DNA of 64,000 nt, from contig JBDNIW010000005.1 in assembly GCA_041688155.1 (NCBI GenBank), positions 1 through 64,000 of the forward strand, read 5' to 3'. Origin of the DNA: Minisyncoccota bacterium (GTDB taxonomy: Bacteria > Patescibacteriota > Minisyncoccia > Phycocordibacterales > UBA918). The first letter of the stretch is position 1, and each line of letters opens with the position of its first letter. The notes below the pieces were generated by a model that ran no database searches, was not told the origin of the DNA, and saw only the letters and a program-made list of their open reading frames with translations. Of this stretch, positions 15,263 to 62,294 are shown piece after piece. Made by a program: the position numbers and the translations under genes.

Positions 15263-16084
15263 CTAGTCTCCTACACTCACTCGATCAGATAAAATCAGAC
15301 TGATCGCTGACAGCAGTTGTTTTAGTGTTTGAGCTTCACTCTTGGTCAAGCTCTCACGCTTTTGCAAGACCTGAGTGAGCTGCCCAAGCGCATTAGTGAC
15401 CAATATACTAGTATCAAGTTGTTTAATTGCATCTTCTGCTGCGGAAACCTCCAACCTTTGTTTTCTTAGCAATCTGTCCCCCACACGGGTGGCAGAGCCA
15501 GATTGTGTACGAACAGACTCAGGCAGCGCAACGATGAACGTGATGGTCGTAAGTTCAAGCGGCCCAAACTGGGCATGTGCAGTTGTAACAAATAGCTTAC
15601 GCAGCCACCGCATGGGTGCAAATACTTGCTGCGGAGTGCCTCCAAGCCCTGCAGAGTCTATTGTATGTACTAGTGTGTAGGTACCAATAGCATTAACTGT
15701 GTATGAATGGTCATTAACATAGTCCGCACCAGCATGGTGATACAACGTGAAACTAGGAGTGGAAGTAAGTGATGTATTATCGTCGAACGTTGCTGTTGGA
15801 CTAAGGTCTACCGGCAAGCTATCGAGAGTCAATGTCATCCCATCAGTAATAGACTCCCCACCAATACTGATATCGACGTTACTAAACCGTGAGCCATCAA
15901 CTATACCAAATGGATCACCACAGTTAGCTGGCAAACGCGACTCCTCCTCACCAGTAGATGAGTTGAGCTCTACAATGGCGCCACAAGACCCTAGAGCGTC
16001 TTTTGATGTTGACATCACCAACAGAAAGATCATTCCAACAATTAGCCAACCTTTATTACTCAACAATAAATTTTGTGTATTCAT
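15263..16084 (-). CDS. Short secreted paralog sharing the N-terminal Cys-containing domain and C-terminal helical tail with 11725-14382
   Basis: Likely start MNTQNLLL with a signal peptide. Shares CG..I....G...C..PFG near the N-terminus and ATRVG.R...Q..L...L.QVLQ.R at the C-terminus. The upstream DNA (TCACCAAAGTCCGCAA[G/A]ATATACCACC) is conserved with the paralog. Start coordinate is within about 1 nt. Confidence 0.5.
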   Translation of the reverse strand: MNTQNLLLSNKGWLIVGMIFLLVMSTSKDALGSCGAIVELNSSTGEEESRLPANCGDPFGIVDGSRFSNVDISIGGESITDGMTLTLDSLPVDLSPTATFDDNTSLTSTPSFTLYHHAGADYVNDHSYTVNAIGTYTLVHTIDSAGLGGTPQQVFAPMRWLRKLFVTTAHAQFGPLELTTITFIVALPESVRTQSGSATRVGDRLLRKQRLEVSAAEDAIKQLDTSILVTNALGQLTQVLQKRESLTKSEAQTLKQLLSAISLILSDRVSVGD

Positions 16085-16217
16085 AATTTGAGTATACCAC
16101 CAGACCATTCGCTTTTTCTTGGCTGGGGTGGTATATTTTGCGGACTTTGGTGATACGTTATTACTAGAGGTTTGAGAGAAATTCTGATGAGTTGAAAGCA
16201 AGGATTAGAACCTAGAT

Positions 16218-16374
16218 GCAGAAGAAATATTGAGTGTCGTGGGTGTAAGCAAAAGCTTTCACCCCTTCGCTCATAGACAAAGTGCAGAAGAAATATTGAG
16301 TGTCGTGGGTGTAAGCAAAAGCTTTCACCCCTTCGCTCGGAACCTAAATGCAAGCCAGCTTTCATTTAGTTCCT
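16218..16374. repeat. Repeat R1, two tandem 66-bp units plus hairpin tail
   Basis: Two copies of AGAAGAAATATTGAGTGTCGTGGGTGTAAGCAAAAGCTTTCACCCCTTCGCTC separated by a 13-nt spacer, then GGAACCTAAATGCAAGCCAGCTTTCATTTAGTTCCT. Each unit contains the hairpin GGGTG-t-AAGC-aaaa-GCTT-t-CACCC. Confidence 0.8.
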
Positions 16375-16378
16375 CGCT

Positions 16379-16452
16379 CGGGGTGTAGCATAATGGTAGT
16401 GTACGCGCTTTGGGAGTGTGAGGCCGGGGTTCGATTCCCCGCTCCCCGACAA
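16379..16452 (+). ncRNA. tRNA-like structured element A (strand uncertain)
   Basis: About 74 nt, opening CGGGGTG..AATGGTAG (D-loop-like) and carrying a canonical T-arm CGGGG-TTCGATT-CCCCG and acceptor-like CTCCCCG-A. The 5' CGGGGTG can pair with CTCCCCG with one mismatch. There is no convincing D- or anticodon stem, so I do not call it a tRNA. It is followed at 16457-16491 by an intrinsic terminator hairpin. Confidence 0.4.
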
Positions 16453-16499
16453 TAAGAAAACATCCAGAACTTTATGTTCTGGATGTTTTCGTATAGTTC

Positions 16500-16643
16500 G
16501 AGCGGGGAATCGAAAAGAGCGAATGTATCGCCCGGAGCAAAGCGAGGACGATTTGAGCGCCGGGGTCGCGTCGCACAGTAGTTTGGAGTCGTGAGACGAA
16601 CATAATACTGCTGCAAAGGCGACCGATTCCCCGCTCCCCGACA
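16500..16643 (+). ncRNA. Structured element B with 13-nt terminal inverted repeats (small-RNA or MITE-like; strand uncertain)
   Basis: The 5' end GAGCGGGGAATCG is the perfect reverse complement of the 3' CGATTCCCCGCTC. The 3' terminus CGATTCCCCGCTCCCCGACA is identical to those of A and C. Internal hairpins include GTCGTgagACGA. A terminator hairpin follows at 16650-16690. Confidence 0.4.
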
Positions 16644-16690
16644 AATACAAAAGTTCCTGGAAATATTTTCCAGGAACTTTTGTTATTTTC

Positions 16691-16836
16691 GGCGGAGGAG
16701 AATGTGAATAGTTTCACATTCGTGGGGAATCGAACGCCGGAGTCGTGTTGCTACGCAACAGACGAGGTGTGTCCCGCGGCACTTATGAGCGTAAGCGAAT
16801 TTGTGACCGTCAGGACGATTCCCCGCTCCCCGACAA
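16691..16836 (+). ncRNA. Structured element C, related to B (strand uncertain)
   Basis: 5' hairpin GAATGTGAAtagtTTCACATTC, then GTGGGGAATCG complementary to the 3' CGATTCCCCGC, and the shared motif GGAGTCGTG. It has the same 3' terminus as A and B, then the terminator hairpin at 16840-16880. Confidence 0.4.
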
Positions 16837-16839
16837 TAA

Positions 16840-16880
16840 GAAAAAGACTGAAACCTAGTGTTTCAGTCTTTTTCTTATTG
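16840..16880. terminator. Bidirectional intrinsic terminator
   Basis: aaaaagactgaaacctagtgtttcagtctttttc. It also serves the convergent PCD gene. Confidence 0.6.
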
Positions 16881-16881
16881 T

Positions 16882-17184
16882 TCAGACTAAGGGCCTCTCC
16901 AACACTTCACTAACCCGCCCCGCCAGCTCCACGTCCTTATCTGTTATCGTATTCCCAGCGTCATGTGTAGTCGTCTCAATTCGCAGCGTATTGTAGCCAT
17001 AGGTCACCGTCGGATGATGATTCAACTCATCAGCTAGATCGCAGACTGCCGGTACAACTGCTTGCAACTCGGTAAAATCATTGAATTTCCAGTTCCCTAC
17101 TAATGTTTCACCTGAAACGGTCCAGGCTGGGTTGTTTGCCAGTAAATATGTAATAGAATCTTTTATAGCTGGTTTCATGTGCAA
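16882..17184 (-). CDS. Pterin-4a-carbinolamine dehydratase (PCD/DCoH)
   Basis: ELNHHPTVTYGYNTLRIETTTHD matches the PCD signature; about 100 aa. Confidence 0.8.
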   Translation of the reverse strand: MHMKPAIKDSITYLLANNPAWTVSGETLVGNWKFNDFTELQAVVPAVCDLADELNHHPTVTYGYNTLRIETTTHDAGNTITDKDVELAGRVSEVLERPLV

Positions 17185-17715: not shown

Positions 17716-17960
17716 ATGAAACGTTTCACGTGGCATGTTTATCTCATTTCACGTGGAATACCCTGGTAGTATAACAAATAAAAATAAAGGACAGATTACT
17801 AATCTGTCCTTTATCCACATATCCACAGTCTTATACACAGTTGTACACCGTTACTTATAAAAGACTCACTCATTGGTCCGTACCTGCCTTGGATGGTGAC
17901 GCGGCCGATGTACTCGCTTCGCTCCGTGCATCATGCTTCCGGTGGTTTCGATTACCCCGA

Positions 17961-18030
17961 AAGACACATTTGTGTCTTTCTCCAGGCCTTCAAATACAAA
18001 ACACACCCAGACGGGTGTGTTTTGTATTTG
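17961..18030. terminator. Two consecutive hairpin terminators downstream of tRNA-Gly(GCC)
   Basis: gaaagacacatttgtgtctttc, and the perfect 18-bp stem CAAATACAAAACACACCC-agac-GGGTGTGTTTTGTATTTG. Confidence 0.6.
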
Positions 18031-18101
18031 TGCGGCCTGGGGTAATCGAAACCCCGACTGATCCTTGGCAAGGACCCGTTATACCACTTAACCAAGGCCG
18101 C
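18031..18101 (-). tRNA. tRNA-Gly (anticodon GCC)
   Basis: Reverse complement GCGGCCT-TG-GTTA-AGTGGTA-TAAC-G-GGTCC-TTGCCAA-GGATC-AGTC-GGGGT-TTCGATT-ACCCC-AGGCCGC-A. Confidence 0.9.
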
Positions 18102-20353: not shown

Positions 20354-21826
20354 ATGCAGATTACAAAGGATTCTATTCCGTCGGAAGTACTATCAGTCGC
20401 TGAAACCCTGGAACAGGCTGGGTTTGCTGGGTATCTGGTCGGTGGCTGTACGCGCGACTTGCTACTAGGGAAGACGCCTAAAGACTGGGACCTAACCACG
20501 GACGCCCACCCCGAGCAGATCCAAGCGCTGTTTCCCGAGCACTACGCTAACAATGACTACGGCACCATCGGGGTCAAAACCGACAGTGAGGACCCAACCC
20601 TCAAAATAATCGAAGTCACTCCGTACCGGACCGAGAGTGGCTATAGCGATGCGCGGCGGCCTGACGCGGTTGCATTTGGCGTGTCACTAGAAGAGGACCT
20701 GCAGCGGCGCGATTTTACCTTTAACGCGCTGGCGTACCGGCCGAGCACTGGGGAAGTGGTTGATCTATTTGAGGGGCAGGCTGACTTGGCCGACAGGCGC
20801 CTGCGGACCGTCGGTGACCCGGACGAGCGCTTTGCCGAGGATGCATTACGGATGATGCGAGCGGTGCGACTGGCGGCTGAGCTCGAGTGCGTCATTGACC
20901 CAGCTACAATGGCAGCCATCAGCCAACATAGCCAGGAAATTACGCGTATTTCCATCGAACGGGTGACGATGGAGTTCCTCAAACTCATCAATTCAACTAC
21001 GCCAATGCAGGGGATTGTGTTCCTCGAGAAACTAGGGCTATTGCAGCACTTCCTGCCCGAGCTGCTAGATACCATCGGCTGCGAGCAAGGAGGAATCCAC
21101 GCGTATGATGTCTATGAACACTTACTACGTACGCTGCAGGGCGCAGCGGACAAAGAATTCACGCAAACACTGCGCCTAGCGGCGTTATTCCACGACATTG
21201 CCAAGCCAACAACCAGACGAGAGGGCGGTAAGAACAAGAAATACACGTTTTTTGGGCACGAGGTAGTCGGGGCACGAATGACTAAAAAGATCCTTGAACG
21301 GCTCAAATTACCGCGCGAAACCATTGACGAGGTAGTCAACCTGGTACGTTGGCACATGTTTTTCTCTGATCCAGCTGAAATTACGTTGTCAGCGGTACGA
21401 CGTACAATCACTAAGGTAGGGGACGACAACATACAAGACCTGTTAAACCTCCGCGTCTGTGACCGAATCGGGACTGGGCGGCCCAAAGAGCAACCATTTC
21501 GGTTTCGCCAGTACAAAGCGATGGTGGATGAAGCCTTACGAGACCCAATATCGGTTAAACTACTCAAAGTAAACGGGGACCGGCTGATGGAACTGACCGG
21601 GGAGCGTCCGGGGCGTAAATTAGGCTATGTTTTACACGCTTTGTTGGAAGAAGCCCTCGATGAACCGGGTCTGAACACCGTTGATTATATGGAAAAAAGA
21701 GGGGTAGATCTGTACGCCTTACCCGAAGCCGAGCTACAAACCCTGGCCGAAGCTGGCAAAGCCAAACAAGCCGCGGAAGAAGCTACTGCTCTCAAGGACA
21801 TCCGCCGCGAGCACAAGGTGGGATAA
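20354..21826 (+). CDS. cca: CCA-adding tRNA nucleotidyltransferase with HD domain
   Basis: Pol-beta nucleotidyltransferase motif GYLVGGCTRDLLLG...DWDL and HD motif LAALFHDIAKP. Confidence 0.8.
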   Translation: MQITKDSIPSEVLSVAETLEQAGFAGYLVGGCTRDLLLGKTPKDWDLTTDAHPEQIQALFPEHYANNDYGTIGVKTDSEDPTLKIIEVTPYRTESGYSDARRPDAVAFGVSLEEDLQRRDFTFNALAYRPSTGEVVDLFEGQADLADRRLRTVGDPDERFAEDALRMMRAVRLAAELECVIDPATMAAISQHSQEITRISIERVTMEFLKLINSTTPMQGIVFLEKLGLLQHFLPELLDTIGCEQGGIHAYDVYEHLLRTLQGAADKEFTQTLRLAALFHDIAKPTTRREGGKNKKYTFFGHEVVGARMTKKILERLKLPRETIDEVVNLVRWHMFFSDPAEITLSAVRRTITKVGDDNIQDLLNLRVCDRIGTGRPKEQPFRFRQYKAMVDEALRDPISVKLLKVNGDRLMELTGERPGRKLGYVLHALLEEALDEPGLNTVDYMEKRGVDLYALPEAELQTLAEAGKAKQAAEEATALKDIRREHKVG

Positions 21827-23664: not shown

Positions 23665-26391
23665 ATGATCAGTCAAAACGAGATTCGTCGTAGAGCTGCT
23701 GCCTTTAGTCACGAGTTTGCCGGTGATGATGATGAGAAAGGCGAAGCCTCAGCATTTTGGGAACAATTCTTCGATGTGTTTGGGGTGTCACGACGCCGAG
23801 TGGCTTCGTTTGAATACCGAGTCAAGAAAGCCGACGGTGCCCAAGGGTTCATCGATGTGTTCTGGCCGGGTGTGCTACTAGCCGAGCATAAAAGCGAAGG
23901 TCGTAATCTCGACAAAGCCTACCAGCAAGCGCTGGGTTATCTTGACGGTTTACAAGCGGGGGAGTTGCCTCGCTATATCGTAGTGTCTGATTTTGCGCGG
24001 ATGCGATTGTATGACCTCGAAGAAAAAGATGAGTTTGAATTTACCCTCAGTGAATTCTCCAAACACATCGACCGGTTTGGGTTCATTTCTGGCTACGACG
24101 TACAGAAATACGAACAAGAGGAACAAGCTAGTATCAAAGCAGCGGAATTGATGGCTGAATTCCACAATGCAATCGCAACTACTGGCTACTCTGGCCACGC
24201 ATTAGAAGTATTCTTGACTCGCGTATTATTCTGCCTCTTTTCTGAGGATACGGGTATATTTGAGCGGCGACAGTTTCAACTATATATAGAACAGCGAACC
24301 AATGAGGACGGTAGCGACCTAGGGATCAAGATTTTGGAGCTGTTCTATGTCCTCAACACGCCAATAGCGGGGCGGCAATCTAACCTCGATGAACAACTCG
24401 CCGCTTTTCCATACATTAACGGCCAAGTATTCACCGAGCGACTCAATCCTATCTCGCTTGATGCCGCTGCCCGCAACACGCTTCTCAAATGCTGTGCGTT
24501 CGATTGGTCACAGATCAGCGCGGCGATATTTGGGTCACTCTTTCAAGGTGTCATGGACAAAGACGAGCGGCGACAGCTGGGCGCCCACTACACCAGCGAG
24601 TTGAACATCATGAAAGTCATCCAGCCGTTGTTCCTCGACGAGCTGTACACCGAGTTCGACACCGCCAAACGCAGCAAGAAACAGCTGGAAACCTTTCATC
24701 TCAAACTGGCCACTCTCAAATTCCTCGATCCAGCCTGTGGCTGTGGTAATTTCCTCGTGACCACGTACCGCGAACTACGTAAACTAGAGCTAGAAGTCCT
24801 CAAGAAAAAGCGTAAGTCTGGCGCGCAGAGTCTGCAGGCGTTCGGGACCGAGGATTTATCATTCATTCACGTTAACCAGTTCTATGGCATCGAAATCGAA
24901 GAATTCCCAGCGCTCGTCGCCCGCACCGCCATGTACCTCGCCGACCACCAAGCGACCCTAGCGATGGAACGTGAATTTGGGCAAGCTATACCGCGAATCC
25001 CGCTAGAAGAACCAGCCACCATCGTGCACGCCAATGCTCTGACTCTCGACTGGGGCGAGGTCATACCGCCCACCGATCTCAACTACATTTTAGGTAACCC
25101 ACCGTTTTTGGGTGCGCGAATTATGAGCAGAGAGCAAAAAGCAGATTTACTAGCCGTGTTTCCACCGAAACTAAAAAACATCGGTAACTTGGACTTTGTC
25201 GCTGCCTGGTATGAGAAAGCTGCTCAATATATAGTAGGAACACAAATCAAAGTCGGTCTAGTATCGACCAACTCGATCACTCAAGGTGAACAAGTCAGTA
25301 TTCTCTGGCAACATCTGCACGAGCAGTACGGCATCGTGCGGCACTTCGCCCATCGAACGTTCAAATGGCACAACGAAGCCAGAGGCAAAGCTGCGGTATA
25401 CTGCGTCATCATCGGGTTTGCGAACTTTGAACCAGTCAAGAAGTATCTGTATTCATACGAAACAGTGCAGAGTGAGCCAGTAGAAATCGAAGTAGGCAAC
25501 ATCAACGCGTATTTGGTAGACGGGCCAGAATTGTTGATAGAAAATCGAACAACAGCTTTATGCGGTGTTCCAAAAGTAAGTTACGGCAGTTTTGCTCTAG
25601 ATGACGGTAATTACACACTTAAGGCTGAAGAGGCTGACGATTTGATTGCAGATAATCCGAAAGTACAAAAATATATCCGACCTTTTATTGGCGGGCGCGA
25701 ACTCATACATAACGAAGCAAGGTTTTGTCTCTGGTTAGCAGAAATTAGCCCGACTGATTTGAAAACTATGCCAAGTGTATTGCGTCGAGTTGAAAACGTA
25801 CGTCAGTGGCGATTGTCCAGCTCACGAGCAAACACAATTGAGATGGCAAAAACGCCAACCCTTTTTGCTGAAGTTAGACAACCTACAACCAAATACATCG
25901 CGTTTCCAACATTATCTTCTGAAAATCGAACTTACATTCCAATTGCGTATCTTGAACCAGAGGTGATAGCCTCAAACCAAGTCTATGTTATCGCTGGTGC
26001 AGACTTATTTCACTTTGGTTTACTGACGTCTGCAATGCATATGACTTGGGTTACATATGTTGGTGGAAAATTAGAATCTCGTTACCGATACTCAAGCAAA
26101 CTTGTCTACAACAACTTTCCGTGGCCAGGCTGCGCTACAGGTGAGTCAGTCAGCGACACCACCAAAACTAAAATCGAAACCTGTGCCCAAGCCGTCCTCG
26201 ACGCTCGCGCAGGGTTCCCCGACAGTTCACTAGCCGACCTTTACGACCCACGCACCATGCCCCCCGCCCTAGCAAAAGCCCATGCCAACCTAGACAAAGC
26301 TGTCGACCAAGCCTACAACTACAAAGATACGGGCAGCGAACCCGACCGAGCAGCGTTTTTGTTTGGGTTGTATGGGGAGATAACTAAATAA
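23665..26391 (+). CDS. Type IIG restriction-modification enzyme (MmeI-like: N-terminal PD-(D/E)xK nuclease, gamma-class N6-adenine methyltransferase and target-recognition region)
   Basis: N-terminal D-x8-EHK (FIDVFWPGVLLAEHK). Methyltransferase motif I LDPACGCGNFLV and motif IV ILGNPPFLG. At 908 aa the size matches MmeI. Confidence 0.7.
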   Translation: MISQNEIRRRAAAFSHEFAGDDDEKGEASAFWEQFFDVFGVSRRRVASFEYRVKKADGAQGFIDVFWPGVLLAEHKSEGRNLDKAYQQALGYLDGLQAGELPRYIVVSDFARMRLYDLEEKDEFEFTLSEFSKHIDRFGFISGYDVQKYEQEEQASIKAAELMAEFHNAIATTGYSGHALEVFLTRVLFCLFSEDTGIFERRQFQLYIEQRTNEDGSDLGIKILELFYVLNTPIAGRQSNLDEQLAAFPYINGQVFTERLNPISLDAAARNTLLKCCAFDWSQISAAIFGSLFQGVMDKDERRQLGAHYTSELNIMKVIQPLFLDELYTEFDTAKRSKKQLETFHLKLATLKFLDPACGCGNFLVTTYRELRKLELEVLKKKRKSGAQSLQAFGTEDLSFIHVNQFYGIEIEEFPALVARTAMYLADHQATLAMEREFGQAIPRIPLEEPATIVHANALTLDWGEVIPPTDLNYILGNPPFLGARIMSREQKADLLAVFPPKLKNIGNLDFVAAWYEKAAQYIVGTQIKVGLVSTNSITQGEQVSILWQHLHEQYGIVRHFAHRTFKWHNEARGKAAVYCVIIGFANFEPVKKYLYSYETVQSEPVEIEVGNINAYLVDGPELLIENRTTALCGVPKVSYGSFALDDGNYTLKAEEADDLIADNPKVQKYIRPFIGGRELIHNEARFCLWLAEISPTDLKTMPSVLRRVENVRQWRLSSSRANTIEMAKTPTLFAEVRQPTTKYIAFPTLSSENRTYIPIAYLEPEVIASNQVYVIAGADLFHFGLLTSAMHMTWVTYVGGKLESRYRYSSKLVYNNFPWPGCATGESVSDTTKTKIETCAQAVLDARAGFPDSSLADLYDPRTMPPALAKAHANLDKAVDQAYNYKDTGSEPDRAAFLFGLYGEITK

Positions 26392-35292: not shown

Positions 35293-35556
35293 TTGAGTAG
35301 TATATTGCGGGCAATGTTTACTAGCAGTCAGCGATTATTGATTCTCAAATGGGGTGGTTTGACGCTTTTTTCACTCAGCCTGCTCCCGTTACTCATGCAC
35401 GGAGTATTTTTTATCGTGCTGTTCCAGTACTATCTCCCGGCGGCGATTATCGGCTACGCAATATATTTTAGTTATCTAAAAATCAAGCACATCGACATGT
35501 ACGATACTGACATCAGAACTATCTTCAAGTCGTTTTTTGCTCGTCCGCAAAAGTAG
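35293..35556 (+). CDS. Possible small membrane protein (87 aa)
   Basis: Strongly hydrophobic ORF starting after the terminator. It overlaps the 3' end of the recombinase gene on the opposite strand. Confidence 0.25.
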   Translation: MSSILRAMFTSSQRLLILKWGGLTLFSLSLLPLLMHGVFFIVLFQYYLPAAIIGYAIYFSYLKIKHIDMYDTDIRTIFKSFFARPQK

Positions 35557-36325
35557 GGGTAGAGCGCAGTAGTTGCGGTGTCACTGCGCGGGTGATTCCT
35601 GCTTCGGCGGCATAGGTTCTGACCAGTCGTTGCACGAGTTTTGGGTGGAGTCGTTTAGCACCACCGTCGTTGGCTTTGCGGCCGTAGCGAACAAATAGCA
35701 TCGGCTCACTATCAACGCGCGCCTGCAGATACTGTCTGATAAAACAACTAGCCTGGGACGACACCGATACCCAATAGATACCGGCGGTATCTCTGCAGAT
35801 AGACATCGAACCGTCGAGGAGTTTAATGTCTTTGGTTGTGAGTGTGCACACATCAGCCACGCGCAGTTTAGTATTTAGAAACAAAGCCAAGAGTGCCACG
35901 TCGCGCTTTCCCTCAAGGGTAGTTTGATCTGGGACAGCTAGCAACCGGTCTTGTTCTGCCACCGTCAGAGGCTCCGTTGGCGCAGTTGGAACTCTCGCTA
36001 ATTTGATCTGGTTAGGGGTGATGGTGGTGATCCCGACACTAGCGAGATAAGTAACAAACATCCGTAACGCTGTCAGGTGATAATTCTGCGTGCGCTGCTT
36101 CATAGGCTGGCTACTGACACCGACGACCGTTCCAGACTGATGACTCAGGTACGTACAAAACGCCGTGATGTGTTCCGCGGTGATGGTGGCTGGTTTGACG
36201 CCATCAGTACATGCTATAAACCGTTCCAAATAACGATTATAATTCTCAACCGTCTTCCTACTTCTTCCCCGTTCGACTTCGAGTTGCGTGAGGAATTGCT
36301 GTTTCAGTTTGCGCAGGTCTGCCAT
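35525..36325 (-). CDS. Tyrosine-recombinase (XerC/D-like) homolog, apparently catalytically degenerate
   Basis: N-terminal core-binding domain and a box I Arg (LNTKLRVADV). The C-terminus reads RLHPKLVQRLVRTY...LLRSTPTFADEQKTT*, which lacks the HxxR His and the terminal nucleophile Tyr (normally LLGH...TTQIYTHV). Confidence 0.45.
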   Translation of the reverse strand: MADLRKLKQQFLTQLEVERGRSRKTVENYNRYLERFIACTDGVKPATITAEHITAFCTYLSHQSGTVVGVSSQPMKQRTQNYHLTALRMFVTYLASVGITTITPNQIKLARVPTAPTEPLTVAEQDRLLAVPDQTTLEGKRDVALLALFLNTKLRVADVCTLTTKDIKLLDGSMSICRDTAGIYWVSVSSQASCFIRQYLQARVDSEPMLFVRYGRKANDGGAKRLHPKLVQRLVRTYAAEAGITRAVTPQLLRSTPTFADEQKTT

Positions 36326-49159: not shown

Positions 49160-52100
49160 ATGGCACACATTATGACTGACACTCCCAACCAACCATACAC
49201 CGAAGGACTAAACGAACCGCAGCGCCAGGCGGTGTTACACACTGAGGGACCGCTGATGGTGTTGGCTGGGGCGGGGTCTGGCAAGACTCGAGTGATCACC
49301 CACCGGATTGTGCATCTCATCCATCAAGGGATTGCGCCGCACAATATCCTGGCGATGACATTTACCAACAAATCAGCTGGTGAAATGCGGGAGCGGGCGA
49401 TTGCTTTGACCAAAAAATACCCCCCTTCTGATCGAGCGGTCATAGACAGTATGCCAGTGGTTACTACTTTCCACGCGTTGGGGGTCCGGTTACTGCGCGA
49501 GTTCCACGAAGCGGTTGGGTTGCGTCGGCACTTCACCATCTATGATCGCAGCGACAGTCAAAAAGCAGTGAAACAGGGAATCGAGCAAGCCGGATATAAC
49601 CCCAAAGAATTTGAACCACGCAAAATCCTGTCGATGATCAGCCGGGCCAAGGGTGACGCGATAACACGTTTGGCATACAGCGACGCAGCTTCATCGTTTC
49701 TCGAAGAAGTGGTGGCCCAGGTGTGGGAGAAATACGAAGACATCCTGCACAAAGAACAGTCGCTTGATTTTGATGACCTCTTGGTCAAGATGTTGCGGAT
49801 GCTCGAGGATAATAAAACCATTCAGGAACGACTCCAACAACGCTACCAGTACATCCACATCGACGAGTACCAAGACACCAACAAAGTCCAGTTCCGGATT
49901 GCTGAACTACTCGCCGGTGACGCCCACAATATATGTGTAGTAGGGGACATCGACCAGTGCTTGGTAGGTGACACACTGGTGACAATGAGCGACAGCAGCC
50001 AGAAACCAATTAAACAAGTAAAGTTAGGCGAACAGGTATTATCAAACTACGGCAGCGGTGATTACCGGCCAGCCGCAGTTACCAAAGTGCACACTAATAC
50101 TCCCAAGACCGATTTGGTCACCATCAAAACAGAAGCGGGACGCACTCTCACCTGCACTCCGCACCACTTACATTTTGCCGGGTATCGACTGGACATTTCA
50201 CCTCAACTGCATTATGTGTACCTGATGCGCAGAGACGGTATCGGGTACAGACTAGGCACGTCGTCGGTCTACACCAAAGGCCAAGTCAAACCAATACTTG
50301 GGTTTGTCCAGCGACTGAACCAAGAACATGGCGACGCAATCTGGGTGCTTGCAACCTACAATACCGTCAACCGAGCCCGCGCAGCAGAATACGAACTATC
50401 CCTGCGCTACCAGATTCCGACCATTCCATTTGTCGCCAGGAAAGGTGTCAGTACTGGCGGCTACGTGCACGATCAGATTGCTCTTGATAAGATTTTTGCA
50501 CAGTTTGACACGGCTGCTAGCGCCACCAAACTACTCAAATCATTTCACTTGCAAACTACCTACCCACATCATCGACCACAAGTAAGCAAAAGCAATCGAC
50601 AAAACATCCTCGTCACGCTGTGCGGAGACCATCGTGGAGCCACGCCAATGCACCGGATTAGTGTCGCTGGTAGTTCACCCCACACCAAACAAATTTTAGA
50701 GCAAGCTGGGTATTCCATTAGATCAGCCAAGATCGGTTCAAAGAGTTGGCGCTATGAAACCTGCGATCAGTCGTATCAGAAAATCTGCACAGTCGTCAAA
50801 CAATTACAAACCTTGCTGCCAGACGCGATTGTAATCGAGCAAGGAAGACTAGGGACTCAAACAGATGTCCGTAATAAAAACTCGCTCCCAGTACTGCCAG
50901 CTGCATCAGTCCGGCCAGGGATGGTTATGTTTGCAGCAGACGGTACGTACGACATCGTCACAACCGTGACCCACGACACCAAAACACAACCAGTATTTGA
51001 TCTCACTATCACCCCAACCCACAACTTTATCGCTAACGGAATTGTGACCCACAACTCTATCTATAGTTGGCGAGGGGCAGACATCAAAAACGTTCTACAG
51101 TTCGAACGCCACTTCCCGAACTCGACCACCATCCTACTCGAAGAAAATTACCGCAGTACCCAGACCATCATCGCGGCGAGTAACGACATCATCAAGAAAA
51201 ATAAAAACCGGGTAGAGAAAAATGTATTCACTAATAATACGCAGGGCGACAAAATCACGTTGTACGCTGGCATGACCGGGTACGACGAAGCGGAGTATGT
51301 CGCACTCACTGCCAAGTCACTCATTGCAGACGGCACCGAGCCGTCGTCAATCGCAGTATTGTATCGAACCAACTTTCAATCCCGCGCTCTCGAGGAAGCG
51401 TTTCTTAATTTTGAAGTACCGTACCAGCTGCTCGGGACGAAGTTCTTTGAACGGCGCGAAGTCAAAGATGTACTGTCGTACCTACGCCTGGCCCTGAACC
51501 CAGGCAGTAACGCCGACCTCTCTCGCGTAATCAACAACCCTACCCGCGGAATCGGCAAAGTCACCATGCTCAAAGTCATCGCGGGCGACCGGGCCAGTCT
51601 GAACGCCGGAGCAATTGCCAAAGTGCAAAAGTTCGACAACATCATGATGGACATCGCGAAGGCAGCCACTGAGAAAAAACTGTCTGACACGATCAAGTTC
51701 ATCATGAAGCGATCCGGGCTAGAGGAGCAGTTCATCGAAGAGGGGACCGAGGAAGCTATGGAACGGATTGAAAACCTCCGCGAATTGGTAACACTCGCCA
51801 GTCGGTTTGACACAGTCGACCCGAACGAAGCCATCGAACAGCTACTAGAGACCGCCGCCCTCCAGAGCGACCAAGACGAAATAAAAGACAAAGAGGAACT
51901 CAACGCTGTGCGACTGATGACCATCCACGCCGCCAAGGGTCTAGAGTTCGCGTACGTATTTGTCACTGGTTTAGAGGAAGGATTGTTTCCACACGAACGA
52001 ATTGATGACGGCAAGACCGACAACGAAGAAGAGCGTCGATTATTCTACGTCGCCCTCACTCGAGCGGAGAAAAAAATCTACCTCACCTACGCCCACATAC

Positions 52101-52243
52101 GAACAATTTTTGGTCAGCAAAAAGTAAACCTACCGTCATCGTTTATCAATGACATCAGCAAAGATCACGTCGAGGCTGCTGACCCATTTGGCCGGGGAAG
52201 TAGTACTAGTAGCGGCTATGAGACGACGGTGTATCTAGATTAA
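49160..52243 (+). CDS. uvrD: UvrD/PcrA-family DNA helicase interrupted by an in-frame intein
   Basis: Helicase motifs I GAGSGKT, II DEYQDT and Q. The conserved VVGDIDQ|SIYSWRGA motif is split by a 366-aa insertion that begins CLVGDTLV and ends IVTHN, followed by S. Confidence 0.85.
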   Translation: MAHIMTDTPNQPYTEGLNEPQRQAVLHTEGPLMVLAGAGSGKTRVITHRIVHLIHQGIAPHNILAMTFTNKSAGEMRERAIALTKKYPPSDRAVIDSMPVVTTFHALGVRLLREFHEAVGLRRHFTIYDRSDSQKAVKQGIEQAGYNPKEFEPRKILSMISRAKGDAITRLAYSDAASSFLEEVVAQVWEKYEDILHKEQSLDFDDLLVKMLRMLEDNKTIQERLQQRYQYIHIDEYQDTNKVQFRIAELLAGDAHNICVVGDIDQCLVGDTLVTMSDSSQKPIKQVKLGEQVLSNYGSGDYRPAAVTKVHTNTPKTDLVTIKTEAGRTLTCTPHHLHFAGYRLDISPQLHYVYLMRRDGIGYRLGTSSVYTKGQVKPILGFVQRLNQEHGDAIWVLATYNTVNRARAAEYELSLRYQIPTIPFVARKGVSTGGYVHDQIALDKIFAQFDTAASATKLLKSFHLQTTYPHHRPQVSKSNRQNILVTLCGDHRGATPMHRISVAGSSPHTKQILEQAGYSIRSAKIGSKSWRYETCDQSYQKICTVVKQLQTLLPDAIVIEQGRLGTQTDVRNKNSLPVLPAASVRPGMVMFAADGTYDIVTTVTHDTKTQPVFDLTITPTHNFIANGIVTHNSIYSWRGADIKNVLQFERHFPNSTTILLEENYRSTQTIIAASNDIIKKNKNRVEKNVFTNNTQGDKITLYAGMTGYDEAEYVALTAKSLIADGTEPSSIAVLYRTNFQSRALEEAFLNFEVPYQLLGTKFFERREVKDVLSYLRLALNPGSNADLSRVINNPTRGIGKVTMLKVIAGDRASLNAGAIAKVQKFDNIMMDIAKAATEKKLSDTIKFIMKRSGLEEQFIEEGTEEAMERIENLRELVTLASRFDTVDPNEAIEQLLETAALQSDQDEIKDKEELNAVRLMTIHAAKGLEFAYVFVTGLEEGLFPHERIDDGKTDNEEERRLFYVALTRAEKKIYLTYAHIRTIFGQQKVNLPSSFINDISKDHVEAADPFGRGSSTSSGYETTVYLD
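49958..51055 (+). other. Intein (366 aa) within the uvrD helicase motif III region
   Basis: Starts with Cys (CLVGDTLVT, block A) and ends with HN followed by the extein Ser (block G). Its size suggests an embedded homing-endonuclease domain. Confidence 0.7.
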
Positions 52244-53195: not shown

Positions 53196-54089
53196 ATGGA
53201 ATGGAATTTACATCCGCGGATTATCGGCGCTTGTCTGGTCGGATTTGCTTTAGTAGCCGGGGCCTATGTGCTCAGTACGTTTGGTGAGTCCAACTTTCGC
53301 AGTCAGCCAGCGGCGGTAGCAGTTGCGGCCGCACCGCGGGTGGCAATTGCAGTTACTGACAACGATAACAACGGCATTGAGGACTGGCGGGACGAATTTA
53401 TTACAACCAAACCAATCATCCTTGATCCCATTGATTCAACCTACGAACCACCAACTACGCTGACTGGACAATTGGGGATTGATTTTTTTGAAAGCTATAT
53501 CCGATCAAAAAGTGCTGGTCCGTTTGGAAGTAGTCGAGAGGAAGTAGTCGAACGAGCAGTCGAAACCATGAGTGTCCAAGCAGTGTATACCCTATATGAC
53601 ACACCTGATATTACTATCATGACTACCTGGGACAACGATGACATTTTGACATACGCTAATACCGTTGCCCTGGTTATCACTAACAATAACATTGCTGATA
53701 GTCGTGGCGAGATTGCTATTTTGTCCGATGCGCTCAGTCAAGTAGAACCCGATATTGAAAACATTGAGCAACTAGCAGAAATTGCCGCGGCGTATCAAAA
53801 CATGCGTGACCAAACGCTCGCTATCCCAGTCCCAGCGTTTGCTGCCAAACAACACCTCGATTTGATCAACACCTATCACGCTCTCTACGAAAGCATAACC
53901 GCGATGGCGATATCGATTGAAGACCCAGCCTTTGCATTGATTCGTATCAAACGCTACCAGGATGATGCCACTGGACTGCAGATTGCGTTGCAGAATATGT
54001 ACGATACATTCGAACCGTACGCGTCGTTGCTTGGACCAGACGACCCGGCATTATTATTCGTTCTCTTTAGTCCGGAGTTTAACTCTTAA
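53196..54089 (+). CDS. Hypothetical membrane-anchored protein (first gene of the T4SS-like cluster)
   Basis: N-terminal TM; no recognisable domains. Confidence 0.35.
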   Translation: MEWNLHPRIIGACLVGFALVAGAYVLSTFGESNFRSQPAAVAVAAAPRVAIAVTDNDNNGIEDWRDEFITTKPIILDPIDSTYEPPTTLTGQLGIDFFESYIRSKSAGPFGSSREEVVERAVETMSVQAVYTLYDTPDITIMTTWDNDDILTYANTVALVITNNNIADSRGEIAILSDALSQVEPDIENIEQLAEIAAAYQNMRDQTLAIPVPAFAAKQHLDLINTYHALYESITAMAISIEDPAFALIRIKRYQDDATGLQIALQNMYDTFEPYASLLGPDDPALLFVLFSPEFNS

Positions 54090-54094
54090 TTAAT

Positions 54095-55555
54095 ATGGAT
54101 ACTTTTTTTCTTGGTTTAAAAAAACTGCTCGTCACGACGATGTTCGTAGTGTTTGCCTTTGTCATGATCTATGTGCCACAAGCACCTACCAGTAACGTTG
54201 CCGAGGTTAACGCTGGCGGATTTGGGGGTATCGTATTTGACCCAACTAACACCGCTCAAAACCTCAACACAACTATCCAAAGTACTATAAGTGCTGCCGC
54301 TAACACTTTGAACTGGACCAAAGAGAATGTTCTCGACGGGATTGGCTGGGCACTCGCCAAACGAGTGGTCTCTGGCATGGTCAGTAGTCTGATCGACTGG
54401 GTGAACTCGGGGTTCCAGGGTCGACCGGCGTTCATCACTGACCTCGGTGGGTTTTTGCGTAACATAGTTGATGAGGAACTCGGGCGAGTCATCAGCGAGC
54501 TCGGGGCCGTGGGGTCGTTTATTTGTTCGCCGTTTCGACTCGACGTGCAGGTATCGATTGCTACCCAGTATGCGCAGTTTGACGCCGACGGTCGTGAGCA
54601 ATCCGCCCCAACTTGTACCCTCACTGGCGTCATTGACAACATCCAGGGATTCATATCAGGCATTGATCCGGGTCGTGGGTTAGCAGACTGGTTGACCATC
54701 ACCGCAACACCAGAAACCTACACCCCATATGGTGCACTCCTGAGTGCCCAAGCAACCGCGCGGGCCCGACTAATCAACGCCGAGGGCACCACCCTGACTG
54801 AGCTTAACTGGGGATCAGGGTTCTTATCACAGAGCGTCTGCCAGGCTATCGAAGGCACCAGCGGCGCCCAGGACTGTTCCATCGTCACCCCCGGTGCCAT
54901 CATCCAAGACGCCCTGACCCTCAACCTCGACTCTGGTCGCCAGGTGCTGGTTCAAGCTGATGAGATCAACGAACTTATTGGTGCCCTACTTGGACAGCTG
55001 GCTAACAAAGCCATCACTGGTATTAATGGACTGCTCGGACTATCAAGTGGTACCGGGTTTACCTACACTGACTACGGCGCCGGGTCGTTCCTTGACGCCT
55101 TAAGAGCAGAAGCTGACGTCACCGTAGCCAGCTCAACCGGGGACGGATCTAGTCTTATGACTGACACCCTCCGAGCCGAACGCAACTCCCGATCAACCAA
55201 CATTCACCTGCTGGACAAACTCGCTGCGTTTATCGTCGACCCACGCAACGCCACCGGATCGCGTGAGATAGCCACCATCCTCAACGAAGAGATATTTGTT
55301 GAGGTACAAAGAAGCAACAACATCATCATCGCGTTGACCCAGTACGTAGCTGAGTTCGACACCGCCAGTACCAGCCGACAAGTCGAAATATTTGTCGAGT
55401 ACAGTAACCTCGACATCACGAGCGAAATCCGCAAAGCCCAAAACATTGCCGATTGGCAATCCCAGATGAGCCTACTAGGGATTGACCCAACCGACAGACG
55501 AGGCTTAGAAGAAATCATCAAAAGCCAAAACGCAGCTACCACTACCACCCCCTAA
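54095..55555 (+). CDS. Hypothetical secreted/membrane protein (T4SS-associated?)
   Basis: N-terminal TM and a large extracytoplasmic region; separated by 3 nt from the preceding gene. Confidence 0.35.
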   Translation: MDTFFLGLKKLLVTTMFVVFAFVMIYVPQAPTSNVAEVNAGGFGGIVFDPTNTAQNLNTTIQSTISAAANTLNWTKENVLDGIGWALAKRVVSGMVSSLIDWVNSGFQGRPAFITDLGGFLRNIVDEELGRVISELGAVGSFICSPFRLDVQVSIATQYAQFDADGREQSAPTCTLTGVIDNIQGFISGIDPGRGLADWLTITATPETYTPYGALLSAQATARARLINAEGTTLTELNWGSGFLSQSVCQAIEGTSGAQDCSIVTPGAIIQDALTLNLDSGRQVLVQADEINELIGALLGQLANKAITGINGLLGLSSGTGFTYTDYGAGSFLDALRAEADVTVASSTGDGSSLMTDTLRAERNSRSTNIHLLDKLAAFIVDPRNATGSREIATILNEEIFVEVQRSNNIIIALTQYVAEFDTASTSRQVEIFVEYSNLDITSEIRKAQNIADWQSQMSLLGIDPTDRRGLEEIIKSQNAATTTTP

Positions 55556-55560
55556 TCCCC

Positions 55561-57906
55561 ATGCAACGATTCCTACCAGCCTTACGACCACGCACCTGGC
55601 TCATCCTGGCTGGTTTGCTGGTGCTAGTGGGATTGTTGTTGCCGCTTGACGTCATCCACGGCGAAAGTTTGCTTGACGGAGAAGGTCCCATCAGAAGATT
55701 CCTGTTTGGGGTAATCATCAACCTCACTGGATGGTTTTTGTGGCTCGGGGGAGCTATCCTCGACTACGGCGTTAACGCCTTTGTAATCAACTTTGGGACT
55801 AACTTCAACCAAAACGGTGTCGGGGTAGCGGTCAACCAACTGTGGGTGATTGTGCGCGATTTCTTCAACATCTTGTTTATCTTTGGGTTGGTGTACATCG
55901 GTTTCAAAATGATCCTCAACAGTGACGACTCCCAGACCAAACAAACCCTGGTGTATCTGATTATGGCGGCGCTGCTGATCAACTTTAGTTTGTTTATCAC
56001 CAAATTCGTGGTTGATTTTACCAACGTCCTAGCGAGTGAGGTAGCGGTCGCGGGGTTTGCTGCCGCTACCGGAGGGGGAACTGAGATAGATGGTAATGCC
56101 CGCAACAACGTGGCTATTGGTGATACCTTCTTCAGGTTGATGGGCATTCAGCAGAATGTCCTCTTGACCCCAGTGGGAATAGAAAGTAATAAAACATCGC
56201 CCTGGTCGTACATATTTGGAGTTGGAATTATCAACATCATCGGAGCGTTTGCGTTTGGGGTCGGGGGGATTATGTTGATTATTCGGTTCGTCGCCCTATC
56301 GGTGTACATGGTGCTGTCACCGTTTATGTTCCTAGGGTGGATATTTCCTGGATTCCAGAGTATGAGTAGCAAGTACTGGAGCGGATTCCTCAAACAAGCC
56401 TTCTACGCCCCAGTGTACATCGTGATGATTTTCTTCGCGGCGACGATTCTCAATAACTTCTTTCGAGTCGGAGGATCATTTGAAAATGCAAATCTGGGTA
56501 GTTTGGCTGGTGATGAAGGATTGCTTGGATCAATAGGAGGGGAGGCAGTAGTGTTCGGTGCTGGACTAGCTCCATTTATCCTCTCCGCTGCTTTCCTCAT
56601 CGCCGCCGTCCAAGTAGCCGGCAAACTAAGCGCCGACGGCAGCACCGTCATGAGTAAAGTAGGTGGTGCTGTACAATCCCGAGTGCGGGGGGCCATACGT
56701 GGAACTGGCAGATTCGCTGCCAGGAATACGCTTGGGTATGGGGCTAGAGGTGCAGGGTTAGCTGGTGAAGCTGGACGCAGGAGGCTTAATCGCCTCACAT
56801 CATCAATGGCACAAAGTGACAGGTTTGGTGCACGCACATTGGCTCGTGGTTTGGATGGTAGCGTTGGAGCCGGACTTGATACAGTAGCTAGAGCTAGAGT
56901 AGCTGGTTCAGAAACCGCAGCCGAAAAGCGTACTCGTATTGACGCAGCCCAAGTACGATTTAATAATACTGCAACAGAAAATCAGCGGGCGACTGATCTA
57001 ACCGCAGCACGAGCTGCCTTAGCTGCCGCTTCCATACCTGCTGATCGGAAAACAGCTGAAAACAAAATCAAGAAACTTACTGGTAAAATGTCTACTGCAG
57101 AACTACAAAATCTGGCACCAGCTGAGCTCAAGACACTGATGGAATCAGGTTTAGTGAACAGTACTAAAATGAAGGAACTAGCCGGTACCGGCCAGTTCTC
57201 TAATGCTTACATGAAAGCTGCTGGCAAAAAGAGAGAGGAAGCATTATTTGGAGACATTGAAAAAGTGTTTGCTAAATCTAATGCCACAGCCATAGAACTC
57301 ACAACTGCAATTGAAGACCTGTCCAAAGAAATTGAGGCTATGACCGACGAAGAAAAAAGTAACGTCGATTTCAACCGCCTTAATTCACAAGTTATTGCGA
57401 GCCAACTATCAGAAAAATCAATGGACTCTATCAGAGATTCTGGGAATCTTACATCGTCTGAATTTTCAGATCTTAAGAAAACTCGCACAGCTGGTATTCA
57501 AAATATTCTCGCTACCGGACGAATTGGGGCAGAAACCAGAGATACTAATGGCAAAGTCATTAGCGCTACGCCAGCAACGGTTTCTAACACACCTGGAACC
57601 ACCGACGCAGCTGCCTTTGTCAAAAAACAGCAAGATAAACTGGTCAAAGGTAATGCCGAGACTATCGGTAAACTACCATACGAAGCTTTCTTCAACACAA
57701 CTACTGGTATCCTGACTGACGCCGGTAGAAGCATGACAGTAGATGCTATGAAAGCTATTGCAAGAACCGCTAACCTAGGTAGGGGCAGTATGTCTGCCGA
57801 TGAGCGATCTGACCTAGCGAAAGCCGTTAGATTACATAATGGTACAACTTCTAAAATGGCAGCCTACTTAGCTACACAGAAAGCAAAGGAAGATTTCCTA
57901 CTGTAA
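55561..57906 (+). CDS. Large polytopic membrane protein (VirB6/TrbL-like?) with a C-terminal coiled-coil domain
   Basis: At least six TM helices in the first roughly 380 aa, then a soluble helical domain. The VirB6 analogy rests on context alone. Confidence 0.35.
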   Translation: MQRFLPALRPRTWLILAGLLVLVGLLLPLDVIHGESLLDGEGPIRRFLFGVIINLTGWFLWLGGAILDYGVNAFVINFGTNFNQNGVGVAVNQLWVIVRDFFNILFIFGLVYIGFKMILNSDDSQTKQTLVYLIMAALLINFSLFITKFVVDFTNVLASEVAVAGFAAATGGGTEIDGNARNNVAIGDTFFRLMGIQQNVLLTPVGIESNKTSPWSYIFGVGIINIIGAFAFGVGGIMLIIRFVALSVYMVLSPFMFLGWIFPGFQSMSSKYWSGFLKQAFYAPVYIVMIFFAATILNNFFRVGGSFENANLGSLAGDEGLLGSIGGEAVVFGAGLAPFILSAAFLIAAVQVAGKLSADGSTVMSKVGGAVQSRVRGAIRGTGRFAARNTLGYGARGAGLAGEAGRRRLNRLTSSMAQSDRFGARTLARGLDGSVGAGLDTVARARVAGSETAAEKRTRIDAAQVRFNNTATENQRATDLTAARAALAAASIPADRKTAENKIKKLTGKMSTAELQNLAPAELKTLMESGLVNSTKMKELAGTGQFSNAYMKAAGKKREEALFGDIEKVFAKSNATAIELTTAIEDLSKEIEAMTDEEKSNVDFNRLNSQVIASQLSEKSMDSIRDSGNLTSSEFSDLKKTRTAGIQNILATGRIGAETRDTNGKVISATPATVSNTPGTTDAAAFVKKQQDKLVKGNAETIGKLPYEAFFNTTTGILTDAGRSMTVDAMKAIARTANLGRGSMSADERSDLAKAVRLHNGTTSKMAAYLATQKAKEDFLL

Positions 57907-57925
57907 AAGGTGATATAAATTAAGT

Positions 57926-58483: not shown

Positions 58484-58500
58484 ACCCGCGCGCAACTACG

Positions 58501-58953: not shown

Positions 58954-58958
58954 GTATT

Positions 58959-59594: not shown

Positions 59595-59596
59595 CT

Positions 59597-61393: not shown

Positions 61394-61420
61394 AGTTGAG
61401 TGTAGTACACTGGATATAAT

Positions 61421-62257: not shown

Positions 62258-62294
62258 AAGCCCCACAGCCAGGTTGGCTGTGGGGTGATGTACT

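Follow-up and report, generated by a model that had tools for sequence, protein, structure and literature searches.

The locus

The 64-kb window considered here (i.e., the whole stretch of DNA analysed, the first 64,000 nucleotides of contig JBDNIW010000005.1) is an ordinary bacterial chromosome segment of ~49% GC in which a tRNA-Pro(UGG) gene is followed, on the same strand, by two structured non-coding units, hereafter satellites B and C, each of which ends with a copy of the 3′ end of this tRNA. The array is flanked by the gene of an uncharacterised 312-aa protein and by that of pterin-4a-carbinolamine dehydratase (PCD); near it are also found a YraN-family gene, the genes of tRNA-Gly(GCC) and tRNA-Arg(UCG) and, 3.5 kb away, that of the CCA-adding enzyme (20354-21826). 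The sole named relative of the YraN protein comes from a "Patescibacteria group bacterium". Integrase, transposase and reverse transcriptase genes were looked for near the array, with the large open reading frames (ORFs) of the window included in the search, and none lies in its vicinity. The array consists of the following features:

16379-16450, + strand: element A, tRNA-Pro(UGG) gene (ARAGORN; Rfam RF00005, 58.7 bits, full length)
16449-16497, + strand: terminator-like hairpin 1, with 22-nt arms 16449-16470/16476-16497 and a T-run (repeat search)
16500-16643, + strand: unit B, type-B satellite (inverted repeats; fold z = -5.3; alignment of type-B units)
16638-16692, + strand: terminator-like hairpin 2, with 26-nt arms 16638-16663/16667-16692 and a T-run (repeat search; terminator scan)
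16693-16835, + strand: unit C, type-C satellite (fold z = -6.6; type-C alignment; covariance model R1)
16833-16881, + strand: terminator-like hairpin 3, with perfect 22-nt arms 16833-16854/16860-16881 and a T-run (repeat search)

The original prediction, made from the letters of the DNA, had described A, B and C as three related structured elements, none of which was a canonical tRNA, and had denied to A foldable D and anticodon arms. This proved wrong for A, which is recognised by ARAGORN and which RF00005 covers from end to end with a score twice the gathering one (58.7 bits vs 29), all four arms being present and a single acceptor pair being non-canonical; CCA is not encoded in the gene. 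The same searches bear out the statement as far as B and C are concerned: neither ARAGORN nor RF00005 matches anything in 16500-16835, even at E <= 10, and neither a T-loop hairpin nor an anticodon arm is present in this region. Since A is an ordinary tRNA gene, the locus consists of one tRNA gene and two satellites rather than of three structured elements.

The sequence shared by the ends of A, B and C is the 20-mer CGATTCCCCGCTCCCCGACA, which, as originally noted, occurs in three identical copies; the window contains exactly three of them (beginning at 16432, 16624 and 16816) and in none of 100 dinucleotide-preserving shuffles was even one copy found. This repeated "core" (16432-16451 in its first occurrence) corresponds to the last 20 nt of tRNA-Pro including the start of its trailer, and the distance from core to core is exactly 192 and 192 nt, though the bodies of B and C are unrelated. 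Each copy is followed by a long hairpin with a T-run, in agreement with the earlier description. A strict terminator scan of the + strand flagged one hairpin of the three, namely hairpin 2. In strains of the L004 type (see below for the related loci) the stem of hairpin 1 displays compensatory changes, 16461/16463 having changed together with 16483/16485.

Architecture of the satellites

The full-length members of the family to which B and C belong are built according to a common plan. Their 5′ part comprises a terminator hairpin, the 5′ strand of a helix P1, the hairpin P2, the 5′ strand of a helix P3 and an internal domain; their 3′ part comprises the 3′ part of the T-loop, the 3′ strand of the T-stem, the 3′ strand of the acceptor, the discriminator and a terminator hairpin. 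The P1 5′ strand, a complement of the acceptor 3′ strand, amounts to the acceptor 5′ strand of the tRNA itself; the P3 5′ strand combines the T-stem 5′ strand with a complement of the T-loop, P3 being a T-stem lengthened by pairing with T-loop bases, while P2 stands in for the D and anticodon arms and the inserted domain for the T-loop. As in a tRNA, the T-stem strand on the 3′ side runs directly into the acceptor strand, so that the unit imitates the acceptor/T-stem "top half" of a tRNA.

In unit C, the 5′ strand of P1 is CGG(A)GGAG (16693-16700), which pairs with the acceptor 3′ strand CUCCCCG, and is followed by P2, a perfect 9-bp hairpin (16700-16721); both helices are absent from the earlier description. 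The T-arm recurs in inverted form as the P3 5′ strand (16722-16732) and, indeed, GGGGAATCGAACGCCGG (16724-16740) is an inverted copy of the whole tRNA T-arm with 16/17 nt identical. The internal domain (16733-16815) holds CCCGCGGCAC...GTGACCGTCAGG and the 3′ core occupies 16816-16835. The 11-bp closing helix with one G-U pair that had been predicted for C is seen in its fold.

Unit B is a short form of the same design, without the P1 and P2 helices. Its ends constitute a perfect 13-nt inverted repeat (16500-16512 with 16624-16636), so that the predicted 13-bp terminal helix is upheld, and its 5′ start GAGCGGGGAATCGAA is a perfect 15/15 inverted copy of tRNA nucleotides 16430-16444; thus, the 5′ arm (16500-16512/14) copies, in inverted form, the T-loop, the T-stem 3′ strand and the first acceptor 3′ bases. 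The body is a multi-hairpin structure and the 3′ core is located at 16624-16643. That the 5′ arms of both B (15/15) and C (16/17) are inverted copies of the tRNA T-arm had been overlooked. On the other hand, the internal motif GGAGTCGTG said to be common to B and C is present in both, at 16585 and 16739, respectively, and a GAGC-GNRA-GCGA mini-hairpin recurs in the units.

The acceptor stem of tRNA-Pro contains a U-U mismatch (16384/16445, tRNA positions 6 and 67) in all strains and relatives seen, and P1 of the type-C satellites has a standard A-U pair at the place of this U-U.

The predicted folds of B and C are both more stable than those of shuffled sequences (-64.2 kcal/mol, z = -5.3 and -71.3 kcal/mol, z = -6.6, respectively) and consist of a long closing helix around a multi-branch domain. 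No match to either unit was obtained with 4,227 Rfam families at E <= 10, the sole returns being microRNA-type noise on the terminator hairpins; in particular, the hammerhead, group I intron, tmRNA, Y RNA and RtT models do not match B and C.

A family of satellites behind several tRNAs

About 50 related metagenomic loci, designated here by L numbers, were assembled by exact look-ups of YraN homologues and by a metagenome scan for non-tRNA copies of the 20-mer; these loci are not independent of one another. B and C are members of a conserved family of structured, non-coding units located directly downstream of tRNA genes, and in the same orientation as these, in an uncultured lineage, probably of the Patescibacteria. 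Considering related loci and window together, satellites carrying the tail of their own tRNA are found behind tRNA-Pro, tRNA-Gly(GCC), tRNA-Gly(UCC) and tRNA-Arg(UCG), and their occurrence is sporadic, with a satellite following 40 of the 79 non-independent tRNA instances of the related loci. Two further members, both absent from the original prediction, are present in the window behind tRNA-Gly genes:

17903-17990, - strand: 3′-truncated type-C satellite of tRNA-Gly(GCC), whose gene is at 18030-18101 on the - strand (sequence; BLAST match 17904-17965)
1-90, - strand: type-C satellite of tRNA-Gly(UCC), whose gene is at 123-194 on the - strand (sequence; BLAST match 27-53)

Of the first of these, only the P1 5′ strand, P2, the inverted copy of the T-arm (GGGGTAATCGAAAC) and the first hairpin are kept; in L004-L010, whose YraN genes are identical, a full two-unit array ~560 nt longer than that of the window is found behind tRNA-Gly(GCC). 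The second unit is cut off by the edge of the window after the beginning of its internal domain, which is preceded by the P1 5′ strand, P2 and GGAGGGAATCGAAC, an inverted copy of the T-arm; the reverse complement of the unit's 5′ region has the Gly(UCC) tail as its best match.

Comparison of the units shows that their termini follow the tRNA while their bodies are exchangeable. In L028, L034 and L040, in which the T-stem of tRNA-Pro is CCGGG/CCCGG instead of CGGGG/CCCCG, the 3′ core of the satellite is CGATTCCCGGCTCCCC and its 5′ arm is GCCGGGA(A)TCGAA, both matching the changed T-stem. Likewise, in L015 and L045 the acceptor variant AAGCCGC of tRNA-Gly is mirrored in both tail and P1 of the satellite. 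More generally, the tRNA best matched by the 3′ end is the unit's own in 9/9 units, and the same is true for the reverse complement of the 5′ region in 10/10 units, with one tie between two tRNA-Gly(GCC) variants. The internal domains, on the other hand, are of three types, each of which is found with the ends of different tRNAs:

Body type B: ends of Pro and Gly; 88% identity between unit B of the window and a Gly-linked unit of L032
Body type C: ends of Pro, Gly(GCC) and Gly(UCC)
Body type D: ends of Arg, Pro and Gly

These data bear on one of the readings originally offered, according to which the repeats are scars of serial site-specific integrations at the 3′ end of tRNA-Pro; each incoming phage or island would have duplicated this end and supplied a terminator of its own, and later deletions would have left the junctions. 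The attL/attR sites of integrases at tRNA genes are direct repeats of the 3′ end starting from the T-loop and tandem arrays of them are possible; similarly, the direct tRNA 3′-end repeats of the present array start in the T-loop, with a different terminator behind each of them. Furthermore, the region is a rearrangement hot spot, as seen from the ABC transporter gene of L012, the serine-recombinase island of L030/L050 and the three genes situated in L032 between the tRNA and a B unit. However, scars would consist of no more than a direct copy of the tRNA 3′ end beside unrelated DNA and would hold neither 5′ strands complementary to the tRNA and changing together with its end, nor a conserved, covarying fold common to the units of different tRNAs, and the T-loop position from which the tRNA is matched differs from unit to unit, which speaks against a fixed crossover. 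In addition, unlike at attachment sites, the repeats are separated by units of ~190 nt with no integrase or island between or beside them, the core is absent from viral contigs, and the serine-recombinase island abuts a different motif located downstream of the satellite. The integration-scar reading thus fails as a full explanation; it is largely excluded and has, in our opinion, only a very slight chance of being correct.

The island just mentioned (L030/L031/L050; 10826-15600 in L050) measures ~4.5 kb, encodes a 562-aa large serine recombinase and lies between the PCD gene and the Pro satellite/tRNA-Pro. This recombinase was considered as a candidate enzyme of the satellites and rejected, in that the motif abutted by the island, GTTCAAGTCTCTCAGCGCGCAC, lies downstream of the satellite's terminator; since the same motif is found also in L028, which has no island, it is probably the recombinase's own attachment site, unrelated to the satellites.

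Conservation of the folds, selection and strand

As to the check on homologues suggested in the original prediction, the folds of both types B and C are kept through compensatory changes. The type-C alignment, analysed with RNAalifold, contains 8 units (3 Pro-linked and 5 Gly-linked) from lineages diverging down to 67% YraN protein identity; 35 pairs are predicted, 96.1% of the cells of the alignment being paired, and 16 of the 35 pairs have changed on both sides compared to 8.8 +/- 1.6 in shuffles, none of the 500 shuffles reaching 16, while in slid registers at most 6 pairs are changed on both sides. P2, which has no counterpart in tRNA, shows changes on both sides in 6 of its 9 pairs. In the case of type B (7 units) 94% of the cells are paired and 12 of 43 pairs have changed on both sides, compared to 3.0 +/- 1.4 in shuffles, with 0/500 reaching 12.

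Unit C with its terminator is identical in the window and in L020 over ~216 nt, amid flanks that are ~6% diverged, so that purifying selection becomes visible. As to the segment preceding it, 15 of the 20 differences found in 1.5 kb between window and L004 fall inside 16461-16620, i.e., exactly within the cassette delimited by the first two 20-mers, and several of them are compensatory.

The same findings must be set against the possibility that the satellites are non-functional by-products, namely partial copies of the tRNA gene in the course of decay or a 3′ flank acting in cis, generated and homogenised by unequal crossing-over, and having at most the role of terminating or insulating tRNA transcription. 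The P1 5′ strand is simply the acceptor 5′ strand of the tRNA, just as the GGGG of P3 is its T-stem 5′ strand, which fits an origin by duplication of the tRNA gene, and both the existence of many truncated units (17903-17990 in the window, the third unit of L015, that of L040) and the absence of satellites behind many orthologous tRNAs (tRNA-Pro of L032, the tRNAs of L040-L044, tRNA-Arg of the window) are in line with decay; moreover, the RtT repeats, to which the satellites will be compared below, are classed by Rfam as "Cis-reg". Yet internal helices unrelated to tRNA have stayed paired through two-sided changes, unit C has undergone zero change next to its diverged flanks, and the bodies have persisted down to 67% YraN protein identity and across tRNAs, unlike what is expected from neutral decay. 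By-products of this kind therefore represent, in our view, a quite unlikely explanation.

Concerning the strand, 12 of 14 curated full-length units fold better in the tRNA-sense orientation, with a margin of 5-16 kcal/mol in 7 of the 8 type-C units; with automatically trimmed units, some of which were cut into by the trimming, the figure is 12/22. In the consensus helices G-U pairs outnumber A-C mismatches by ~2:1, and identity with the tRNA is perfect at the 3′ end of the sense strand while the 5′ arms are imperfect. Fold stability, G-U excess and 3′-end identity, taken together, moderately favour an RNA of the sense strand.

Distribution of the satellites and their possible mobility

The distribution of the satellites was examined by BLAST with the internal bodies and with R1, a covariance model of the tRNA-independent internal domain of type C that scores 66.5 bits on the window at 16764-16814. 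In the 64-kb window and in the related loci copies were found only directly downstream of tRNAs, the sole exception being a displaced B unit of L032, separated by three genes from its tRNA; hence the satellites are not dispersed like a mobile element, save for this one unit. Neither ~750 kb of unrelated viral DNA nor the E. coli tyrV-rttR locus gave a significant match to R1, the 20-mer has 0 matches in the viral contigs of IMG/VR, and the scan of a genome collection for its non-tRNA copies returned one chance match inside a coding region.

Several known types of element were rejected as candidates. A phage origin found no backing in the comparison of the locus with 50,697 phage records (blastn and megablast, no match), and the 80 viral matches to a gapped type-C motif are accounted for by chance in sequences of ~67% GC, given that no wider similarity accompanies them and that R1 yields E ~0.5-1. 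A miniature inverted-repeat transposable element, the second of the original readings, must also be discarded: there is neither a target-site duplication at the boundaries of B and C nor dispersal of copies, and the inverted arms differ according to the local tRNA, the supposed inverted repeats being specific to the neighbouring tRNA. Retron RNAs have a closing helix like the satellites, but reverse transcriptase genes are absent from the large ORFs of the window and from the neighbours of the related loci. Finally, a group I intron in a tRNA is contradicted by the absence of RF00028 matches (E <= 10) and of an anticodon arm, and by inserts of only ~85-110 nt; in Patescibacteria the group I introns of tRNAs are located at position 35/36 of the anticodon loop (PMC13011429).

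What the arrays do display is an extensive polymorphism. In relatives the forms tRNA-B-C, tRNA-B, tRNA-C and tRNA-C with a truncated second C (C') are encountered, from which it follows that B and C are independent modules, and presence, absence and order of the units vary between near-identical strains. Such a behaviour could be that of selfish DNA cassettes homing to tRNA genes, i.e., of mobile modules bounded by the T-loop-derived AATCGAA...TCGATT that would insert or be exchanged at the T-loop region of tRNA genes or of copies of these, perhaps as folded single-stranded DNA through a host recombinase such as Xer, the folds serving recombination instead of an RNA function. The confinement of the window-L004 divergence between two cores, the occurrence of one body with the ends of different tRNAs, and the duplex formed by the arms, which is identical to the T-arm DNA of the tRNA gene, point in the same direction, as do two of the related loci. 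Thus, L012 (1494-1761, oriented coordinates) contains a B unit into which 73 nt, namely a P2-like hairpin and a type-D body, are nested, and L032 (8515-8660) contains an orphan type-B unit with a degenerate Pro tail located 2.5 kb downstream of tRNA-Pro. The duplex formed by the arms is reminiscent of the folded attP of the CTX phage, and an Xer-like recombinase is encoded in the window.

This recombinase gene is, however, 19 kb off and housekeeping-like, and no array adjoins a recombinase, transposase or reverse transcriptase; copies away from tRNAs are limited to the one displaced unit and none is found on viral contigs. Furthermore, the arms match the local tRNA instead of being carried with the body, the G-U pairs of the sense strand and the stability bias favour RNA, unit C is frozen under purifying selection, and most of the polymorphism is accounted for, with no need for mobility, by the loss of units when direct repeats recombine. 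On balance, we regard the premise that the satellites are selfish cassettes as rather unlikely.

Other peculiarities of the two loci just mentioned should be reported. In L012 an ABC-transporter gene occupies the place of unit C, and in L032 the orphan unit has on either side a copy of the terminator and of the beginning of an EamA-family gene, which suggests a segmental duplication or an insertion between core copies. One strain, L011, carries close to tRNA-Gly(GCC) an inserted fragment (1092-1631) of an rve-family (IS3-like) transposase, which again marks these tRNA flanks as hot spots of rearrangement.

Mobility and production of an RNA could also coexist, if the satellites were self-propagating, enzyme-less cassettes homing to tRNAs whose body moves from one tRNA locus to another and there acquires direct and inverted copies of the local tRNA 3′ end through recombination or copying at the T-loop, the sequence of which is universally conserved. 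We deem this combination improbable. Were it true, each colonised tRNA would be accompanied by an RNA mimicking its top half, perhaps acting as a tRNA-specific decoy or regulator, and the RtT repeats of E. coli would represent a domesticated or convergent example.

Satellites as proposed tRNA-linked RNAs

The explanation that we favour, with a confidence that is moderate, is that the satellites are tRNA-linked RNAs of the sense strand that mimic the top half of the tRNA and thereby borrow its maturation pathway, the internal domain being the cargo, while recombination keeps the tails matched to the tRNA and swaps the cassettes. Of the three original readings, that of a family of tRNA-derived small RNAs comes closest to this, in view of the conserved folds, of the termini copied from the tRNA and of the tRNA-adjacent, co-oriented location.

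According to this model, the units would be transcribed in the direction of the tRNA, whether through read-through or from a start of their own, and by virtue of their acceptor/T-stem imitation would be trimmed to tRNA-like ends by the enzymes that mature CCA-less tRNAs. RNase P would act at P1 and a 3′ endonuclease or exonucleases at the discriminator, after which the CCA-adding enzyme encoded 3.5 kb away might tail the units. The products would be stable RNAs of ~115-150 nt in which the internal domain would constitute the working part. The repeated cores and terminators, in turn, would allow recombination to make the arrays grow, shrink and swap units and would keep the tails identical to the tRNA.

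A number of observations weigh against this explanation. Unit B lacks the acceptor-like P1 and would therefore not be an RNase P substrate as proposed for C; a promoter-like site was looked for in front of B and C and not found, and the strong hairpins between the units argue against a simple read-through, these hairpins being palindromic and hence bidirectional. The evidence on the strand is only moderate, in that 2 of the 14 curated units fold slightly better in the antisense orientation, and the covariation was counted on the same small alignments (8 and 7 related sequences) that had served for the structure prediction. Many units are truncated or polymorphic between near-identical strains, which would fit selfish or decaying DNA as well.

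Relationship with RtT repeats and tRNA-like structures

The closest known counterparts of the satellites are the RtT-type repeats behind E. coli tyrT, which have been known for decades. Here, tyrT is followed by a 178-bp unit repeated ~3 times, each repeat containing a tRNA-Tyr end. In the E. coli genome (NC_000913.3) the 19-nt tail of tRNA-Tyr, AATCCTTCCCCCACCACCA, which starts in the T-loop, recurs every 178 nt after tyrV; in the annotated 171-nt small RNA RttR an inverted copy, GGGGAAGGAT, pairs with this tail so as to close a domain of three hairpins with a short 3′ overhang.

The similarities between RtT (RF00391) and the present family are manifold. Both consist of tandem units directly downstream of a tRNA and on its strand, with periods of 178 nt in E. 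coli and 192 nt here; in both the unit ends with the 3′ end of its own tRNA beginning within the T-loop (over 19 nt in E. coli, over 20 nt in the window) and an internal inverted copy (GGGGAAGGAT and GAGCGGGGAATCG, respectively) closes a multi-branch domain with a short 3′ overhang, the architecture of RttR being that of unit B. The differences concern, first of all, the sequence: RF00391 recognises the E. coli units with 133-137 bits (threshold 45), whereas in the window (16000-17000) it finds no match at E <= 10, so that the link with RtT, a further point to be weighed against our reading, is one of architecture and not of demonstrated homology. Moreover, three body types exist here whereas the E. 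coli repeats are near-identical, a terminator hairpin is inserted between the units, the full-length units possess in addition the acceptor-like P1 and the P2 hairpin, four or more tRNAs are served by the family, each by units whose termini match it, and the host is an uncultured organism, probably of the Patescibacteria, instead of an enterobacterium. By architectural analogy, the family is best filed as a sequence-unrelated variant of the RtT-type tRNA-linked repeat RNAs.

In PMC4986893, which cites Bosl and Kersten 1991, RtT is described as an RNA released from the transcripts of the tRNA operon in the course of tRNA processing and having a link with the stringent response, while in more recent work its mode of action is still called unknown (10.1101/2024.07.17.603846). 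Our literature search found no earlier description of tRNA-linked satellites, nor of such elements in Patescibacteria.

A second term of comparison is offered by the tRNA-like minihelix mimics. The mascRNA of MALAT1, the tRNA-like structures at the 3′ end of viral RNAs and the tRNA-like domains of the Y RNA YrlA and of tmRNA all use a stack of acceptor and T-stem to borrow proteins that process or bind tRNA, and this coaxial stack is what the satellites have in common with them. However, these mimics keep the T-loop and usually the D-loop elbow, whereas in the satellites the T-loop has given way to a long helix and an inserted domain; furthermore, the mimics reproduce a generic tRNA shape and the satellites the exact sequence of the neighbouring tRNA. 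None of these families gave an Rfam match: the mascRNA model reached 20.7 bits, on the true tRNA only, and the permuted tmRNA 12.8 bits.

A second RtT-like family, unrelated in sequence and with a far richer variation (four tRNAs, three body types and co-changing termini), is now at hand, and the recurrence of the RtT design indicates a selected solution rather than the oddity of one operon. The natural variation provides handles for distinguishing the constrained helices and for separating tRNA-specific from generic parts. The family also enriches an uncultured lineage with very small genomes, probably belonging to the Patescibacteria, by a class of conserved non-coding elements, and should induce annotators to expect behind tRNA genes 3′ fragments of tRNA that are neither pseudogenes nor attachment sites.

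Other features of the window

On its 5′ side, too, tRNA-Pro is accompanied by structured repeats. A 66-nt unit present twice (91% identity) at 16217-16348, just upstream of the gene, contains in each copy the hairpin GGGTG-TAAGCAAAAGCTT-CACCC and the end CTTCGCTC, and relatives have other structured repeats in front of this tRNA, such as three hairpin units of ~55 nt in L028 (8210-8400), so that the 5′ side of this gene collects repeats, too. The ORF called for PCD carries a spurious N-terminal extension.

Farther away from the array, the following genes were identified:

23665-26391: complete gene of an MmeI-type (type IIG) restriction-modification enzyme, with five of the five MmeI domains
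35525-36325, - strand: short Xer-like tyrosine recombinase of 266 aa, the only recombinase-family gene among the large ORFs
49160-52243: UvrD-type helicase gene interrupted by an intein (Intein_splicing and Hint, residues ~265-632)
53196-63786: co-oriented ORFs without Pfam match around a TraG/VirB4-like ATPase gene (59597-61393)

The last of these runs of ORFs may represent a type IV secretion-like or pilus-related cluster.

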